IMG/VR virus record: IMGVR_UViG_2713896773_000027
Strand: one strand, 5' to 3'
Length of the DNA stretch: 13,526 nucleotides
Origin: a virus
Lineage: Duplodnaviria > Heunggongvirae > Uroviricota > Caudoviricetes
In this document: in pieces, positions 7,462-13,526 of the stretch
Numbering within the stretch: position 1 is the stretch's first letter
How the letters are laid out: every line of letters begins with the position of its first letter
Position numbers and translations under genes: made by a program
Notes under the pieces: model-generated
Told to the model about the DNA's origin: nothing
The model's database searches: none
Seen by the model: the letters and a program-made list of their open reading frames with translations, nothing else

Positions 7462-7588
7462 ATTTTCTGCTCACCATAGTTATTCATAGCAAGCTGCGGA
7501 TTTTAATTAACAGAAACCAGTGTGTGTGGAAATCACAAAGTGCATACCGTGCCCCAATGATGTTTTATTGAAAAGCGGGGTTACTTTA

Positions 7589-7870
7589 ATGTTTGATTTA
7601 ACCATATTTTTTATAACCATCCTTGGAGGCGTGCATTCGTTTCTGAATGGGGTTCGTGAAAAACGTTACGAAGCGTCATGCAGGCAATTGATGGCCGAGT
7701 GTATTGCTGCCGTACTTGCAGGCTTTATAGGCATGTATTTCGCGGAATATAAGGGTATGGATGAAAGTCTTCAGAATTGCGTGACTATTATTTGCAGCAT
7801 CAATAACAGGCTCATTCTTGAAAAGTTACAAAGGATTATCGATTCGTACCTCAGTAGCAATGCCTCTTAA
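7589..7870 (+). CDS. small membrane protein with two predicted transmembrane segments; holin-like (hypothesis)
   Basis: About 93 aa from the ATG at 7589; the track's GTG at 7520 has no Shine-Dalgarno. Hydrophobic stretches LTIFFITILGGVHSFL and CIAAVLAGFIGMYFA. Paralogous to the next ORF (GG..TFL..VR-D/E..; AGxxAxxLG motif). Function is inferred from size and topology only. Confidence 0.55.
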   Translation: MFDLTIFFITILGGVHSFLNGVREKRYEASCRQLMAECIAAVLAGFIGMYFAEYKGMDESLQNCVTIICSINNRLILEKLQRIIDSYLSSNAS

Positions 7871-7937
7871 GCAACAAATGACCGGTTGAGAAGTTACTTT
7901 GCATACCATTACCTCCTGACAACGTAGGAGGGAACTT

Positions 7938-8267
7938 GTGCTTGACACACAGGAATTAGCTCCAGTTGCTATTGCGCTCCTGCTTTCAGTAATTGGTGGG
8001 ATAGGCACGTTCCTGATGGATGTCCGAGACGGTCGCCAGTCTGGCAATTTGTTGGGATTGGTTACGGAGATCTTTGTTGCAGTGACAGCTGGCGCGGTGG
8101 CGTACCTATTGGGGCAACACGAGGGCTGGGAGTTATCAATTACGTACTTAATGGTAACGATAGCCAGCAATAACGGTCATGAGGTGATTTCAGGGATGAA
8201 ACGAGTGAATATCGATAGCATTCTGAATGTTCTTACAAGTTTGGTGAAAAAGGGAGGCGGGAAATGA
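7938..8267 (+). CDS. small membrane protein with two to three predicted transmembrane segments; holin-like paralog (hypothesis)
   Basis: 109 aa. GTG start preceded by a strong Shine-Dalgarno AGGAGG (7925-7930). Hydrophobic stretches VAIALLLSVIGGIGTFLM and IFVAVTAGAVAYLLG. Its stop overlaps the next gene's ATG (ATGA). Confidence 0.7.
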   Translation: MLDTQELAPVAIALLLSVIGGIGTFLMDVRDGRQSGNLLGLVTEIFVAVTAGAVAYLLGQHEGWELSITYLMVTIASNNGHEVISGMKRVNIDSILNVLTSLVKKGGGK

Positions 8268-8707
8268 TTGGCTGGGGTGTATGCGTTCTTGCGTTAGCCT
8301 TAGCCGATCGCTATTTGCTAAAACGCAAGGACATCACGCATTTAGAACTTGGTGATGTGGAAATTAAACCGGGTTTCATCCGGGTGCCGTTCAAATACCG
8401 GTCTAAATTCCCGTTTTTGCGCGGCGCAACAGTCAGATATTGGATCCGCGATGTTCAGAAGCCGACGACAGTGATTGAAGGCGAACAACGTTGTTTGACG
8501 TCGGCTGAACAGGGCGAAAACAGTGAATGGTTGTACATACCCACTGAATATATGGGTAAAGGAGAGCGACTGTGGCATTTCAACGTCATGGTTACGCATG
8601 GCGACTCGTTCATTAACCCGTTGTATCGGATTTTCCCTGTTACTCAGCAAATCCGCAGAAGTTACGTAATAAATCTCGCACAGGATGTGTCAGATGACGA
8701 AAAATAA
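8264..8707 (+). CDS. hypothetical protein with N-terminal signal-anchor-like hydrophobic segment
   Basis: 147 aa. ATG preceded by GGGAGG, overlapping the upstream stop. N-terminus MIGWGVCVLALALADRY is hydrophobic. No recognisable catalytic motif by eye. Confidence 0.65.
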   Translation: MIGWGVCVLALALADRYLLKRKDITHLELGDVEIKPGFIRVPFKYRSKFPFLRGATVRYWIRDVQKPTTVIEGEQRCLTSAEQGENSEWLYIPTEYMGKGERLWHFNVMVTHGDSFINPLYRIFPVTQQIRRSYVINLAQDVSDDEK

Positions 8708-9296
8708 GTATGCAACGGTCGATTTTGACCAGGTTAATGAAAAGGGGCTGAAATCCCTTATCGCGGCGATCAATAAAACCGGGGTTACGGTAATTGAGGT
8801 TGACTCCAGCAACCGCGCAACAACGAAAGATGGCGTTAAAGTTAAAACCGCAAAGCTGGTTCTTAACGACGGACAAATCCTTGCCATACAGGTAAACGAT
8901 ACTGGCGATATATCGTCTGTGAAACTGAATGGAAAAGCTATTCCTAACGCTCAGTCGCCGGATATCAAGACGCTTGGTACCGTCATGGGACAGGCGGCCC
9001 GCAAAAACTCCGCAAAATTCCAGAAATCACTGATCGCCAAAGCGAAGCGTGTAGCCAATCCGGTAGACAAGAAACCGGCAGTTAAATCCAACTTTCAGCG
9101 CCTGCAAGAAGCAAAACAGCGGAATGCTCAGGTGGTTGCCGCTTATAAGTCCGCGCAGAATTCGGTGTCTTTCAATCAACAGCAGATCACTGATTTGCGG
9201 GCGAAGCTGGATAAGGAGACGGGCCGACTCAATAACGAAAAGGCACGGAATGGCGAACTCAAACGTCGTCTTAAGCAACTGAAAGCAGGAAATTAA
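8694..9296 (+). CDS. hypothetical protein; N-terminal domain shared with the next ORF plus C-terminal basic coiled-coil
   Basis: About 200 aa from the ATG at 8694 (Shine-Dalgarno AGGA at 8682-8685); the track start at 8685 is less likely. The start overlaps the upstream gene's end. Shares LNDGQILAIQ ... KNSAKFQK with the next ORF. C-terminus is rich in K/R/Q/E heptad-like sequence. Confidence 0.7.
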   Translation: MTKNKYATVDFDQVNEKGLKSLIAAINKTGVTVIEVDSSNRATTKDGVKVKTAKLVLNDGQILAIQVNDTGDISSVKLNGKAIPNAQSPDIKTLGTVMGQAARKNSAKFQKSLIAKAKRVANPVDKKPAVKSNFQRLQEAKQRNAQVVAAYKSAQNSVSFNQQQITDLRAKLDKETGRLNNEKARNGELKRRLKQLKAGN

Positions 9297-9297
9297 C

Positions 9298-10329
9298 ATG
9301 GAACAGTTCAATATCAATAAAGGGGTGACGATCAAGCCTGGGCTTGACGTGCTTCCCCCGCCAGTGACTGATGATGAATATCGCGCATTAATGGCCGGTG
9401 AGGACCGCTATCTGATGACGGAATCCAACACCCTGGAGGAAATCGAGGCTACGTTCTTCTATGACACGCCGATCCACTGGTGTGCTACGGATTTACTGGA
9501 GGCGATTAGTTCTACTCGTTTGCAGTTACACCGGACCATGCAGGCATTTGTCCGGGCATTGAACCAGAAGCTGAATGGCACCGGAATCTCTGCGGGGAGT
9601 GATAAAACGGGGGATGTGGCCCAGAGCGGCGCGCGCGCGATCGGCGGTGCTGAAATTGGCCGGGCACGGAACGTTAACGGGCTGCCGGTCCTGCCAGCCA
9701 TTATTCCGCTCAGTGATGGTCAGACTATCAGCATTCTGTTTCATAGCCCGACAGCGGAAAACCGGATCACCAATAGCGATACGCTGGTTGCTTTCCAGTT
9801 CTTACTGAATAAAAAAGACGTTACTCACACCGTTGCTCCGATGAGTGGACGTGATATGACGCTGGCGCAGGTCACCATGAAACTTGCCAACCTTGCAGAG
9901 AAAAACTCGGCAAAATTCCAGCGTGCGCAGAAGAAGAAAAAAGCCCTGGTTGATGAAATAACCCAACTACAGGCTGACAGTGACCAGAAAGAGGATGCCA
10001 TGAGCGACCTCGCGGATCAGGTGGCAGCGGTAGAAGGGCAGAAGGTAGATCTGGAGCAGAAAATTAACGCTGTTGCATCGGAAGCGGATTCTCTTTATGA
10101 AGAGAATGAGCGTTTGCAGACGGAGATTGATCAGCTCAATCGCACTGGTGGGCGCGAAACCATTGCTCCTGCGGGGATGACTGGTGGACACTCTCGCGCG
10201 ATGACGGATCGCCTTGCAAGTATCAAAAATCGTATGCATATGAACGGGGAAGTGACGCTCAGTAATGGTGCATCAATGAAGCAATTCATTGAGGACGGTG
10301 AAGGGTATATCCAGTTAACTGGGATGTGA
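9298..10329 (+). CDS. hypothetical protein, paralogous domain (DGQ...KNSAKFQ) plus long acidic coiled-coil
   Basis: 343 aa. ATG one base after the upstream stop, Shine-Dalgarno AGGA at 9285-9288. Motifs LSDGQTISIL and EKNSAKFQRAQKKKK. Coiled-coil segment LVDEITQLQADSDQKEDAMSDLADQVAAVEGQKVDLEQKINAVASEADSLYEENERLQTEIDQL. Confidence 0.8.
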   Translation: MEQFNINKGVTIKPGLDVLPPPVTDDEYRALMAGEDRYLMTESNTLEEIEATFFYDTPIHWCATDLLEAISSTRLQLHRTMQAFVRALNQKLNGTGISAGSDKTGDVAQSGARAIGGAEIGRARNVNGLPVLPAIIPLSDGQTISILFHSPTAENRITNSDTLVAFQFLLNKKDVTHTVAPMSGRDMTLAQVTMKLANLAEKNSAKFQRAQKKKKALVDEITQLQADSDQKEDAMSDLADQVAAVEGQKVDLEQKINAVASEADSLYEENERLQTEIDQLNRTGGRETIAPAGMTGGHSRAMTDRLASIKNRMHMNGEVTLSNGASMKQFIEDGEGYIQLTGM

Positions 10330-11714
10330 AGACGCTGGATAAACAGGTTGATGTAACTCCCGATGAAGATGCTGTTATGCAGAAAATCAGTGGTGGCGTC
10401 TCCATCGCCGGGATTAACGACATCATTTCCTGTGACGATTTCTACCGTTTCCAGCAGCGCGGCATGATCAAAATCACTGACTCATACGGCGTTCAGACTA
10501 CAGAGTCAGGCTATAGCATTGATTTTGTTGGTACCTATACGGACCCACTGAAGCATGCGGTTTACCCGGATCGCCGTGACGGCGCGCTGAAGTCGTCAAT
10601 TGCAAAATGGGTGCTTGGTATGATGTCGGAAGGGAATAACCGCCAGATCCGTTCGGCAGAAACATTCCTGGTTGAACTGTTTGGCTCCAATTATGGCGAT
10701 GTAATCGCGTCATACGGAGATACGCTATCCCCTGAAGCAATTCAGGAGAAAATAGCGGATGCGATCGCCAGAATGCCGGAAAAAACAAGCCAGGGGGCTA
10801 CTCGTAACGGGGATTCTGAACTTGAAGTCACCAATGCCATTTTCGGTACCAATGAGTTCCGGGCGTCAGATTATGAGATCACCACAGCACAGTTTGGCAC
10901 CATTGGCATTTACAGCAATAAAGCCGAGATCAAGCAGGCAATGGACGCAGCAAGCGCGCGCATCGCAGCAGAACGGGAAGCCAATCTGAATCATGCAGTC
11001 GCCGCACTGACTCAATCGTGGGTAACAGCAATCAGGGAGGCCGCCACCACAGGGAAAATCACACCTGCAATTGCGGATGTCGTAAACGACGGCTCTAAAT
11101 TTATGGATGCCTATCAAATGGATGCGGTGCAGTTGCCATCAGCCTATGGCCAACTCAGCTATCGCATGACCTACAACCTGGTATCAATGTTTACTGACCT
11201 TGCCATCCTTGGGCTGGTGGACCTTAACGAGGTTACGCCGGAATTACTCAGCATGCGCAAGAATCATGTTGAGATATTGCAGAGAATTAACACGGTTCTT
11301 GCCGGGCGCACCGATGAAGAGAAACAGGCCGACGCTGATCGGATAAACCTGGCCCTAGGCAACATCACGGAGGAAGAAATTGCCGCCAGAAACGAGAAAC
11401 AAGAAGAGTTATCATCAATACAGGGTGATGCCACCAGCATAGCTCAGTCTCTTGGGCTGAATTATCGCGTATCCACCGCCGACCTGAAGATGATGTACGC
11501 ACCAAAATTCGCCGCTGGCGAGGTATTTGGGCTTCAGGAAGCCTCCGGCATGAAAGGGGTTCTTTTCCGTGCGAAAGACGCAATCAAGGCGAAATTCGGC
11601 GCTCGCTGGTTGCCAGCGAAGGCGAAGAACAGCGACTTCCCAGGTAACTGGTGGATTATCGAGACAAAACACAACGTGGCGGACGTTCTGGCCGTCATCC
11701 AACAATACGCATAA
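10326..11714 (+). CDS. hypothetical protein (462 aa), translationally coupled to the upstream gene
   Basis: GTG start overlapping the upstream TGA (GTGA). Long uninterrupted ORF. No Walker, nuclease or other catalytic motif recognised by eye. Confidence 0.8.
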   Translation: MKTLDKQVDVTPDEDAVMQKISGGVSIAGINDIISCDDFYRFQQRGMIKITDSYGVQTTESGYSIDFVGTYTDPLKHAVYPDRRDGALKSSIAKWVLGMMSEGNNRQIRSAETFLVELFGSNYGDVIASYGDTLSPEAIQEKIADAIARMPEKTSQGATRNGDSELEVTNAIFGTNEFRASDYEITTAQFGTIGIYSNKAEIKQAMDAASARIAAEREANLNHAVAALTQSWVTAIREAATTGKITPAIADVVNDGSKFMDAYQMDAVQLPSAYGQLSYRMTYNLVSMFTDLAILGLVDLNEVTPELLSMRKNHVEILQRINTVLAGRTDEEKQADADRINLALGNITEEEIAARNEKQEELSSIQGDATSIAQSLGLNYRVSTADLKMMYAPKFAAGEVFGLQEASGMKGVLFRAKDAIKAKFGARWLPAKAKNSDFPGNWWIIETKHNVADVLAVIQQYA

Positions 11715-11720
11715 CAGGAG

Positions 11721-11738
11721 CGCCCGGTTCGCCGGGCG
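11721..11738 (+). promoter_or_regulatory. intercistronic GC-rich stem-loop with TTCG tetraloop between a Shine-Dalgarno sequence and the next start codon
   Basis: CGCCCGG-TTCG-CCGGGCG. AGGAG (11716-11720) lies immediately 5' of the stem and the ATG at 11748 lies 9 nt 3' of it. There is no U-tract, so it is unlikely to be a simple terminator. Confidence 0.5.
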
Positions 11739-11747
11739 TCGCATAAT

Positions 11748-12188
11748 ATGGCCACATTATCTGATACAATAAAACCGAATAAAACATATCTTGAGGCGGT
11801 GCTGCGTACGGCGTTGTTAGGAAAGACAGAAGACGAATACGTTGATTTCTTCCTGTCAGGGCTACGCGGGCGATTACTGAAAAATCCCCGCCTGTACCGC
11901 AGCTATGGTCCATACTGGCCGGAAATTAAAAAATTATTACTGGAGCGCGGTTATGGTAATTTCGGTCGTCTCGTTGACCGTGACGTTCGCAAAATTTACC
12001 GTTATGACCGTCCGGCGCTGACGCTCATAGCCGCGACGCTCTACAGCCAGGAGCGTTTTGATAATGGTCAGATATACTCAGCCTGGCATTTACTGCCAGT
12101 GCCTGAAGAGGTTGACGACCAGGACTATGAGTTTGAGTCTTACGATTTGGAAGTTGAAGCCTTGGCACAGGCTGGAGAGAAAACTTGA
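11748..12188 (+). CDS. hypothetical protein (146 aa)
   Basis: ATG start 9 nt after the stem-loop. Acidic C-terminus (EEVDDQDYEFESYDLEVEALAQAGEKT). No recognisable domain by eye. Confidence 0.7.
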   Translation: MATLSDTIKPNKTYLEAVLRTALLGKTEDEYVDFFLSGLRGRLLKNPRLYRSYGPYWPEIKKLLLERGYGNFGRLVDRDVRKIYRYDRPALTLIAATLYSQERFDNGQIYSAWHLLPVPEEVDDQDYEFESYDLEVEALAQAGEKT

Positions 12189-12433
12189 AGAAGCGATACT
12201 ACACAGTAAAGCATGGGACGCTACGAGCATTGCAAGAGTTTGCTGATAAGCATAACGTTGAGGTGCGCAGGGAAGGGGGAAGTAAAGCTCTGCGCATGTA
12301 CCGTCCTGACGGAAAATGGCGGACGGTCGTCGATTTCAAAACTAACAGTGTTCCCCAGGGCGTCCGCGACCGGGCATTCGAAGAATGGGAGCAGATCATC
12401 ATAGATAACGCATTGCTTCTGAACGCTGATTAA
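12185..12433 (+). CDS. small basic hypothetical protein (82 aa), translationally coupled
   Basis: TTG start overlapping the upstream TGA (TTGA), with Shine-Dalgarno GGAGAG at 12171-12176. Last gene of the co-directional string before a hairpin. Confidence 0.6.
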   Translation: MKKRYYTVKHGTLRALQEFADKHNVEVRREGGSKALRMYRPDGKWRTVVDFKTNSVPQGVRDRAFEEWEQIIIDNALLLNAD

Positions 12434-12443
12434 TAATCATTTA

Positions 12444-12464
12444 AAGCCCATATGATATGGGCTT
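12444..12464 (+). terminator. hairpin (10-bp stem AAGCCCATAT / ATATGGGCTT) separating the coupled operon from the AT-rich downstream gene; weak U-tract
   Basis: A perfect inverted repeat is seen directly. It is followed by AAACAACAGG on the + strand, so intrinsic terminator function is uncertain. It coincides with a sharp shift in base composition. Confidence 0.4.
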
Positions 12465-12515
12465 AAACAACAGGATCGATATACAGTGTTAGTTAAATAT
12501 ATAGGCGAGAGTTAT

Positions 12516-13526
12516 ATGGAAAAACCTTGGCCGGGCATGCACATTAGAACATCTTGTCTGGAGGATGGTTTCTTTAGAGCAACGCAACCAAAGTATCTTA
12601 ATGATCCGTCGAGTGAGTCGCGACTTCTTCCATTTTTTAATAAATTTTCACCAGCCGATTACGCATGGGCTAGAAATGAATTTAAGAAAATGCAACGAGA
12701 TCCATCTTATGTCCCATCTATACAAGAGTTAGAGTATTATTTAAAACCTTGCGGGAAACGATACGGAGAGGATTTTCCACACTTGTTAATCAATGAAGGT
12801 TTTACCTCAATGGATTCATATGATGAATCTAAACTCCAAGAAATAGTAACGTACCTTAACGATTATTTAGTAGAAGCCGTAAGCTGTCATCTTGGTGTAT
12901 TCTCTCTATCAAAAAGTGATTGCAATCTACACATGTGGACTCATTATGCATCGATAGGAAAGGGGTTTGCTGTAGTTTTCGATGAAACACACGATTTTTT
13001 CAAAATATATAGGCCGTGTGATGTTAGTTATAATCCAGAAGATAGAGCATCTGTAACCTATTATAAAGGCGCTGTGCGATTTAATGGCTATCCTGCGCCA
13101 TCGAGGAATATAGATATAAAGAATAAAGATAATACATTGCATGGGATCTTAAATCGAGATTCAGTTCGCGAGCTTTTTATTAATAGGCTCCTTTATACAA
13201 AAGGTGAAGAGTGGCTTCCTGAAAATGAAAGTAGAATTATTTTTCCTTTAGCTGATTGCGAGAGAAAGATAGGAAGTATTGTCTCTCCATCGATTGATGA
13301 TTGCCTATTAAATGAGTATCCTGATGTTTTTCATGACTATCATGAAATTAACTTAAAGAAAATTCCTTTTTCTGCATTCAAGCAAATTACCTTAGGGTAT
13401 AACATGACTGAAAAAGATAAAAATATAATTTTAGATAAAGTTAGTTCGAATAAAGAATTGTCTCACGTCAACGTATTACATTCAAAACTTGATATATACG
13501 GAAAGGTTGTGGTTAAGCCCATGTAA
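12516..13526 (+). CDS. AT-rich orphan protein of unknown function (about 336 aa); candidate horizontally acquired accessory or defence gene
   Basis: ATG at 12516 with GAGAG 5 nt upstream; the track's GTG at 12486 is less likely. The ORF ends exactly at the window end (TAA). Visibly lower GC than all neighbours. Contains CHLGVFSLSKSDCNLHMWTHYASIGKGFAVVFDE. No known catalytic motif recognised by eye. Confidence 0.8.
   Translation: MEKPWPGMHIRTSCLEDGFFRATQPKYLNDPSSESRLLPFFNKFSPADYAWARNEFKKMQRDPSYVPSIQELEYYLKPCGKRYGEDFPHLLINEGFTSMDSYDESKLQEIVTYLNDYLVEAVSCHLGVFSLSKSDCNLHMWTHYASIGKGFAVVFDETHDFFKIYRPCDVSYNPEDRASVTYYKGAVRFNGYPAPSRNIDIKNKDNTLHGILNRDSVRELFINRLLYTKGEEWLPENESRIIFPLADCERKIGSIVSPSIDDCLLNEYPDVFHDYHEINLKKIPFSAFKQITLGYNMTEKDKNIILDKVSSNKELSHVNVLHSKLDIYGKVVVKPM

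Follow-up and report, generated by a model that had tools for sequence, protein, structure and literature searches.

A stretch of viral DNA of 13,526 nucleotides (nt; IMG/VR record IMGVR_UViG_2713896773_000027, hereafter the window) carries an all-G/C RNA hairpin between darB and ulx, two genes of phage P1, and in the darB-ulx transcript this hairpin probably forms the central part of a split ('accommodated') translation initiation region that serves ulx. The Ulx protein belongs to the Dar anti-restriction system of P1, is located inside the phage head and aids the localization of DarB (PMC9024508 Table 1; PMC12810830). We found no description of the ulx/olxA initiation region of P1 in the searchable literature. 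As read directly from the plus strand, the darB stop codon TAA (11712-11714) is followed by a single C and by the Shine-Dalgarno (SD) sequence AGGAG (11716-11720), whose conserved core is GGAG (11717-11720). Next comes the hairpin CGCCCGG/UUCG/CCGGGCG at 11721-11738 (5' arm 11721-11727, loop 11728-11731, 3' arm 11732-11738), then an A/U-rich spacer of 9 nt without an SD motif (11739-11747; TCGCATAAT in the DNA, UCGCAUAAU in the RNA), and finally the ulx start codon ATG at 11748. The stem is made of seven perfect G-C pairs and may be extended by an optional eighth pair, G11720.U11739. From the last G of AGGAG to the A of ATG there are 27 nt, which become 9 nt when the 18-nt hairpin is looped out, or 8 nt if G11720 and U11739 pair. 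The untranslated gap between both genes measures 33 nt in the window and holds the SD together with the hairpin, which lies wholly between SD and AUG and sequesters neither of them, as only the last base of the SD takes part in the optional G.U pair. This reading (11716-11748) bears out an earlier note on this DNA, which had placed a stem-loop between an SD and the ulx start codon and had described a perfect 7-base-pair (bp) GC stem, a TTCG loop and an effective spacing of about 9 nt after folding.

Regarding the use of this SD, the note had also argued that the sole AGGAG is too far from the start codon for normal initiation. The 27 nt read here exceed a limit of about 15 nt and agree with this, and nothing SD-like is found at the canonical distance: no SD-like sequence is present 4-12 nt upstream of ATG 11748, the best anti-SD duplex there reaching -2.7 kcal/mol, against a median of -5.8 kcal/mol for 92 P1 genes. 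AGGAG is the one SD that ulx can draw on. No start codon precedes ATG 11748 in its frame, and the N-terminus of Ulx, M-[A/T/S]-T-L-x-D, aligns in all closer homologues (at least 47% identity), including those that lack the hairpin and have ordinary SDs. As judged from these alignments, the assignment of the ulx start codon is secure. We looked for alternative start codons and found none in frame upstream in P1; a GTG in the loop occurs only in two loci, L162 and L163 (1501-1521; protein P0007, 152 amino acids). In both, the loop is TGCG and the start called in the annotation is the GTG formed by the last stem base and the loop, which lies 6 nt past AGGAG and adds seven residues (VRRANNC) to the protein. 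This GTG start is probably a mis-annotation caused by the split ribosome-binding site (RBS).

We then folded the region 11690-11780 with ViennaRNA, a prediction that the note had proposed, and found the 8-bp version of the hairpin, with the G11720.U11739 pair, both in the minimum free energy (MFE) structure and in the centroid. The energy of the hairpin is -13.6 kcal/mol with 7 bp and -15.6 kcal/mol with the G.U pair. No other perfect all-G/C hairpin with 7 bp or more occurs in the whole 13.5-kilobase (kb) window, and only 1.5% of first-order Markov shuffles of the window hold any such hairpin. A search of 11500-12600 with the Rfam covariance models gave no match at E <= 1 on either strand. 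The MFE structure also contains a long-range helix between GGCCGU (11690-11695) and AUGGCC (11748-11753), which would sequester the AUG until the ribosome translating darB passes. We rejected this helix, as it is not conserved in Pantoea or in locus L007 and shows uncompensated changes in natural P1 variants; both of its strands are under coding constraint. A repeated or mobile element was rejected as well, since the window and the P1 genome each contain a single copy of the hairpin, and the other viral matches to its pattern lie in unrelated GC-rich contexts. Finally, the SD and the hairpin lie between two direct copies of the 7-nt sequence CGCATAA (11708-11714 and 11740-11746). This repeat is restricted to the P1 lineage, close relatives having RWTAACCGN in the spacer instead, and resembles the product of a local duplication or conversion. 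The SD and the hairpin would be lost together if the two copies recombined.

To examine the junction in relatives of P1, we gathered darB-ulx junctions by protein look-ups, alignment-guided scans and one DNA pattern scan. The first viral and metagenome scans were dominated by near-identical copies of P1, and a scan of contigs with a single protein gave three loci; the diversity came from distant-query alignments and exact-protein look-ups. We detected a hairpin between the SD and the ATG in 21 lineages, comprising P1, P7-like phages, Cronobacter phage JK004, Salmonella, Pantoea, Enterobacter-type contigs, Hafnia, Serratia, Xenorhabdus and Yersinia. Ten distinct stem sequences give stems of 6-8 bp with loops of 4-5 nt, and include CGCCCGG, GCGCCCC, GGCCUGG, GGCCCAG, CGGCCUC, CGGCCCC, GCGCUCA, GCCCCC, UGCGCCCU and UGCGUUAA. 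The hairpin was present in the MFE structure of all nine homologues that we folded. The loops are diverse (UUCG, UUAG, CGCG, UGCG, AUGU, CGGAG, GAAG, AGUC, GAAA and others), and in the window the loop is closed by G11727-C11732 and not by the C-G pair of the extra-stable C(UUCG)G tetraloop. We rejected a special role of the UUCG tetraloop, which the earlier note had named, as the loop is not conserved; its sequence is incidental.

All 21 hairpin-bearing lineages have GGAG (or AGGA, or GGGG) 0-2 nt 5' of the stem, and in 20 of them the stem ends 7-9 nt before the ATG. The linear SD-AUG spacing ranges from 25 to 32 nt, and falls to 7-11 nt once the hairpin is removed (16 nt in one lineage). The distance from the darB stop to the SD is variable, between 1 and 11 nt, and the sequence of the spacer is not conserved. 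The spacer is free of SD motifs in all lineages except L288, where AAGGA lies 2 nt from the AUG. Across these lineages the element keeps its place with respect to the SD and the AUG, while its position with regard to the darB stop is free. Conserved SD-to-stem and stem-to-AUG distances are exactly what a ribosome-binding-site device predicts, while a terminator, a stabilizer or a recoding signal needs none of them.

For the analysis of covariation, we used an ungapped, loop-centered alignment of the 21 distinct sequences. Standard pairs are formed in 99.3% of its cells, and five of the seven stem pairs show changes on both sides. The covariation score was 0.806, compared with 0.208 ± 0.037 in shuffled alignments (none of 500 reached 0.806), and controls in which the partner was slid by one to three columns gave at most 0.195. 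Seven cells of the stem alignment are G.U pairs, which would be A.C on the opposite strand; the structure therefore belongs to the sense-strand RNA. Among six lineages of the P1 clade, the 14 stem positions are all invariant, versus only 2 of 33 four-fold degenerate sites of ulx, while the loop and the spacer are nearly saturated with changes. According to these comparisons, the hairpin is real and under strong selection. The conservation in homologous loci that the note had asked about thus extends to 21 lineages and includes compensatory changes.

Relatives without the hairpin have the SD 4-9 nt from the start codon: GGGA-6 nt-ATG in L008, TAAGGA-8 nt-ATG in L009-011, TAAGGGA-5 nt-ATG in L012-014, and TAGGAG followed by 6 or 7 nt and ATG in six loci from gut metagenomes. 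The junctions of L149 and L156 are similar to those of the other hairpin-less loci. In the hairpin-less sister lineages and in most outgroups the SD occupies the equivalent position after the stop codon, and three outgroups (L148, L155 and L370) have a hairpin 5' of a canonical SD. Among the homologous loci collected, we found none with a long SD-ATG spacing but without a hairpin, which is the kind of locus that the earlier note had named in advance as speaking against it. The loci with the hairpin group into a single clade in a neighbor-joining tree of Ulx proteins, and the sister clade and the outgroups lack the arrangement; a single gain is therefore implied, and the tree points to one acquisition of the hairpin followed by long retention. 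Besides these loci, five P1-type elements (L119, L138 and L087, at about 1450-1500; L143 and L136, upstream of the ulx ATG) carry unrelated sequence in place of darB. Their breakpoints fall within the hairpin (…tttcaat/GCCCGGTTCGCCGGACG… and …cacttcag/TTCGCCGGGCG…, with the slash at the breakpoint), so that AGGAG is gone and half of the stem is left. In L119, an in-frame upstream ATG lengthens the ulx open reading frame (ORF) to 163 amino acids.

To our knowledge, natural split ribosome-binding sites are known mainly from genes 25 and 38 of phage T4. For gene 25 there is mutational and probing proof, lacZ fusions with dimethyl sulfate (DMS) probing having confirmed the split arrangement (Malys & Nivinskas 2009, as summarised in PMC3014915). 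Destabilizing mutations reduce initiation, mutational and probing evidence being summarized for both genes, and the arrangement is restricted to close T-even phages, distant ones having an ordinary RBS (PMC3014915). Folding shortens the SD-AUG spacing of gene 38 from 22 to 5 nt, and the folded values in T4 are 5 and 11 nt (PMC3014915). As a positive control, we read the anatomy of both T4 sites with the same script as that of ulx. Gene 25 has GAGG, 2 nt, a 7-bp stem, a 4-nt loop, 8 nt and AUG; ulx has GGAG, 0 nt, a 7-bp stem, a 4-nt loop, 9 nt and AUG, and the linear distance is 27 nt in both. Both sites lie at an intercistronic junction of a virion-protein operon, and in both the structure is found in close relatives and an ordinary RBS in distant ones. 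They differ in that the stem of gene 25 is A/U-rich and weak (-7.7 kcal/mol), while that of P1 is all G/C (-13.6 kcal/mol). Moreover, the ATG of gene 25 shares a base with the end of gene 26 (record position 115802), and its SD and hairpin are within the coding sequence of gene 26, whereas those of ulx are in an untranslated gap of 33 nt. The sequences and the phage families are unrelated, and the T4 site is proven by mutation and probing, while the ulx site is known by sequence comparison.

Gene 38 reads UAA-GGAG, a stem of 8 bp topped by a C(UUCG)G loop, 4 nt and AUG. It thus shares with ulx the UAA stop, the GGAG, a G/C-rich UUCG hairpin, a short spacer and the AUG. Unlike in ulx, its SD overlaps the first two stem pairs, its loop is the canonical C(UUCG)G and its AUG is 4 nt past the stem, compared with G-C closing and 9 nt in ulx. 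The proposal of the earlier note that the spacing is structure-dependent, as in some T4 genes, is supported by the geometry of gene 25, the likeness to gene 38, the covariation and the fixed distances. The ulx junction is best read as an added case of the known class of hairpin-bridged sites typified by T4 genes 25 and 38.

To find out if other P1 genes have this architecture, we scanned the P1 genome, without using its annotation, for an SD followed by a hairpin, an SD-free spacer of 4-12 nt and the start codon of an ORF of at least 50 amino acids. The scan returned exactly two sites, ulx and pmgG, compared with 0.15 matches per genome in 20 shuffled genomes. The second site, at the gp21-pmgG junction of P1 (L371, OP279344.1; 49991-50031, minus strand), reads TAA-AGGAGGA-GGCCGGG/GAAC/UCCGGCC-10 nt-ATG, with a 7-bp G/C hairpin at 50004-50021 and the ATG at 49993. 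This ATG is the start given in AF234172, the original P1 annotation, and the N-terminus that it implies is conserved in homologues; the newer record, OP279344, starts pmgG at 49876, which is 39 codons too late. The pmgG hairpin is present and covarying in every relative lineage. Its 5' side holds the SD in lineages like P1, Salmonella and JK004, where the spacer measures 10 nt, and in more distant lineages the SD is 3' of it at the canonical distance. By these alignments, the split RBS architecture recurs independently at gp21-pmgG. Another hairpin, GCGCCCC/CGTGC/GGGGCGC, lies at the junction between gp23, the major capsid gene, and gp22 (L371 52443-52506, minus strand). It is all-G/C, has no T-run and is followed at normal distance by an SD and a start codon; it is likely a stabilizer or an attenuator after the capsid gene.

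We propose that the darB-ulx co-transcript would fold the hairpin, and that folding would loop out its 18 nt and shorten the SD-AUG distance from a non-functional 27 nt to about 9 nt. A 30S subunit could then pair with GGAG, and the AUG, 9 nt past the stem, would reach the P site. The output of Ulx would hence depend on the integrity of the stem and be tuned by it. We infer from the comparison of sequences that GGAG serves as the SD, that the synthesis of Ulx requires folding and that ulx is read from the darB transcript. Ulx has been detected in virions (PMC9024508), so the darB-ulx junction must be read through. The hairpin would be entrenched, because its loss would strand the SD 5' of the stem, and entrenchment alone could explain its long retention. 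The hairpin may in addition shield the 6.8-kb darB message from 3' exonucleases. A role of the hairpin in setting stoichiometry, put forward in the earlier note, remains a conjecture.

Several observations weigh against hairpin-bridged initiation at ulx. Each functional step proposed for P1 is one that we infer from the sequence. The fold energy of the whole 91-nt region is unremarkable (z = -1.67; 11 of 200 shuffles fold equally well), and the case rests on the perfect stem and the comparative evidence because the regional folding energy is not unusual. The register of the covariation alignment was chosen through the best hairpin of each gap, which by its nature raises the percentage of paired cells; this choice has less influence on the double changes and on the slid controls. 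In addition, the lineages found with the DNA pattern are biased to an identical stem, a bias that the protein-based retrievals do not share. In one Serratia lineage (L367) the spacer is 14 nt long, so that 16 nt separate SD and AUG after folding. Only 6 nt lie between the darB stop and the stem in P1, so a terminating ribosome must melt the base of the stem, although this does not apply to all lineages. Since a ribosome ending at the darB stop must melt part of the stem, re-initiation could operate at ulx instead of de novo SD-guided initiation. Lastly, P1-type phages also have intercistronic G/C hairpins with the SD on the 3' side, at gp23-gp22 and, in distant lineages, at pmgG, and such hairpins probably serve a function independent of SD bridging.

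Intercistronic stabilizer hairpins of polycistronic mRNAs, such as REP-type elements, are barriers to 3'-exonucleases. It could be argued that the hairpin is primarily an element of mRNA stability or processing, a possibility that the earlier note had raised too. It would be either a barrier guarding the long darB message against 3'-exonucleases or a landmark for processing, the upstream GGAG would not drive ulx, and Ulx would be made through termination-reinitiation or from a processed, near-leaderless RNA. The ulx hairpin resembles such stabilizers in being a stable G/C stem-loop without a U-tract that directly follows the end of a long cistron. P1-type genomes have further hairpins of this all-G/C, intercistronic kind that lack U-tracts and have a 3' SD (gp23-gp22), and the hairpin of gp21-pmgG is kept in every lineage regardless of the side on which the SD lies. 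However, REP-type stabilizers stand upstream of the SD of the next gene, while the SD of ulx is 5' of the hairpin and its distances to SD and AUG are conserved. A role in stability leaves unexplained why GGAG is found 0-2 nt 5' of the stem in 21 of 21 lineages, why the stem-AUG distance is held at 7-9 nt with an SD-less spacer, and why hairpin-less relatives have their SD at the canonical distance. Besides, the hairpin is fixed to the SD and the AUG and not to the darB stop, from which it drifts (1-11 nt). We consider this explanation unlikely when taken on its own terms. Yet a role in stability and SD bridging are compatible and may coexist, and a stabilizer may have been the origin of the hairpin.

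Indeed, intercistronic hairpins seem to be general in these P1-type operons, probably as RNA-stability elements. A split RBS would arise once an SD ends up 5' of such a hairpin, and the stem would then be entrenched. Taken further, P1-type phage-plasmids would use hairpin-bridged SDs as a recurring and entrenched design, reached by SD capture 5' of stabilizer hairpins, of which P1 shows two cases (ulx and pmgG). With the stem so close to the darB stop in P1, each terminating ribosome would have to melt it. Initiation at ulx would then alternate with termination at darB, hard-wiring the Ulx:DarB ratio needed for the loading of DarB into capsids. We regard this wider proposal as doubtful.

A translational operator would also be found next to an SD. 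A phage protein (Ulx, DarB or another Dar protein) would bind the stem-loop, repress or activate ulx, and set the Ulx:DarB ratio by feedback. The position is typical of translational operators, and lineages with only 47-49% identity between their Ulx proteins share the stem CGCCCGG/CCGGGCG unchanged. These identical stems, however, came from lineages retrieved with a pattern that required that stem. The loops are unconstrained and the stems covary into ten sequences, which argues for recognition of shape over sequence, and we found no RNA-binding domain in Ulx or its neighbors. An operator is thus quite improbable. The likeness to a rho-independent terminator, which would limit transcription from darB into ulx-lxc as a terminator or attenuator, is confined to a G/C-rich stem-loop directly past a stop codon. 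The ulx hairpin has no U-tract in any of the 21 lineages, its 3' flanks are A-rich (UCGCAUAAU in the window), and the terminator scan did not call it, while genuine P1 terminators found in the same way have T-runs. Furthermore, Ulx is a virion protein without an annotated promoter of its own, and the downstream gene needs read-through, which makes termination here very improbable.

Barely plausible, finally, are a recoding signal (readthrough or hopping to a DarB-Ulx fusion) and a DNA-level palindrome serving as a protein-binding or recombination site. In their favor, darB and ulx share one reading frame in P1 and close relatives, with gaps of 33 or 30 nt, the hairpin starts 6 nt past the stop, the CGCATAA repeat flanks SD and hairpin in P1, and some rearranged plasmids break within the hairpin. 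The gap lengths were 33 (five cases), 30, 31, 35 and 35 nt, and the frame is lost with those of 31 and 35 nt in L007, L173 and L207, as it is with the larger gaps of other loci. Every lineage has UAA as the stop, the peptide encoded in the gap is not conserved and the direct repeat is found only in the P1 lineage. A DNA palindrome is at odds with the G.U pairs, which become A.C mismatches on the other strand and mark the structure as a strand-specific RNA. We also rejected ribosome hopping between the GCA-UAA motifs, as the repeat is specific to P1 and landing would meet a stop again.

Regarding the genes around the hairpin, the matches of the window identify it as a degenerate phage P1-type plasmid, a rearranged remnant of P1. 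The darB 3' remnant (10326..11714, plus strand) keeps the last 462 codons with the stop TAA at 11712-11714, and is annotated in RefSeq as a fragment of a pseudogene. Upstream it adjoins a truncated darA (9298-10329), of which the N-terminal part of 343 codons is left. The darA/darB junction lies at about 10320, and in P1 both genes are on the same strand about 10 kb apart. The segment 8600-10319 matches lydB-hdf-darA of P1-type phages, with the last 462 codons of darB following from about 10320, and 7520-9296 encodes two LydA-like holins, LydB and Hdf. In the best-matching Escherichia coli plasmid, IS1 copies flank the block on both sides. The darB-ulx-lxc block of the window shows 97.7-98.3% identity to P1, P7 and SJ46, and P1 itself has the same darB-ulx gap, including the hairpin, without a single difference. 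No promoter, terminator or other feature is marked in this gap in the P1 record, rich as its annotation is. The element in the window is inherited from functional P1-type genomes and does not necessarily work there, darB being only a remnant.

The ulx gene (olxA in P7; 11748..12188, plus strand, 146 amino acids) was identified by its identity to P1 and P7 and by the annotation of the P1 record. It is followed by lxc (bof; 12185..12433, plus strand, 82 amino acids), whose TTG start overlaps the TGA stop of ulx (TTGA) and has GGAGAG 6 nt upstream. This overlap is a classic coupled junction, unlike that of darB and ulx. The P1 record also shows three sigma-70 promoters, P1-P3lxc, which serve lxc and lie within ulx, 3' of the hairpin. 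Because of these promoters, lxc in P1 does not depend solely on the hairpin, and only ulx would clearly depend on it. The earlier note had made the last two genes depend on folding; this would hold for ulx and does not stand for lxc. Past the stop of lxc, by 11 nt, there is a perfect 9-bp palindrome, AAGCCCATA-TGA-TATGGGCTT (12444-12464), without a T-run on the plus strand. From about 12420 the window diverges from P1, and a DUF2971 ORF (12486-13526) stands in place of the mod promoters of P1.

With the reading of the ulx hairpin as the bridge of a split initiation region, ulx adds a well-supported family of split RBSs to those of T4, found in another model phage, P1, and in the many plasmid-prophages related to it in Enterobacterales. 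The evolutionary order can be followed clearly: hairpin-less relatives have a plain stop-SD-AUG order, and one clade gained an 18-nt hairpin that has been kept by compensatory change. Gene callers misplace starts at split sites, as seen for ulx, called at the GTG of the loop in some assemblies, and for pmgG, short by 39 codons, and calculators of RBS strength that use linear spacing will score such genes as untranslatable. The loading of the anti-restriction protein DarB requires Ulx, so that the hairpin could plausibly serve as a point of control over the host range of P1 and over P1 phagemid delivery systems (PMC12810830).

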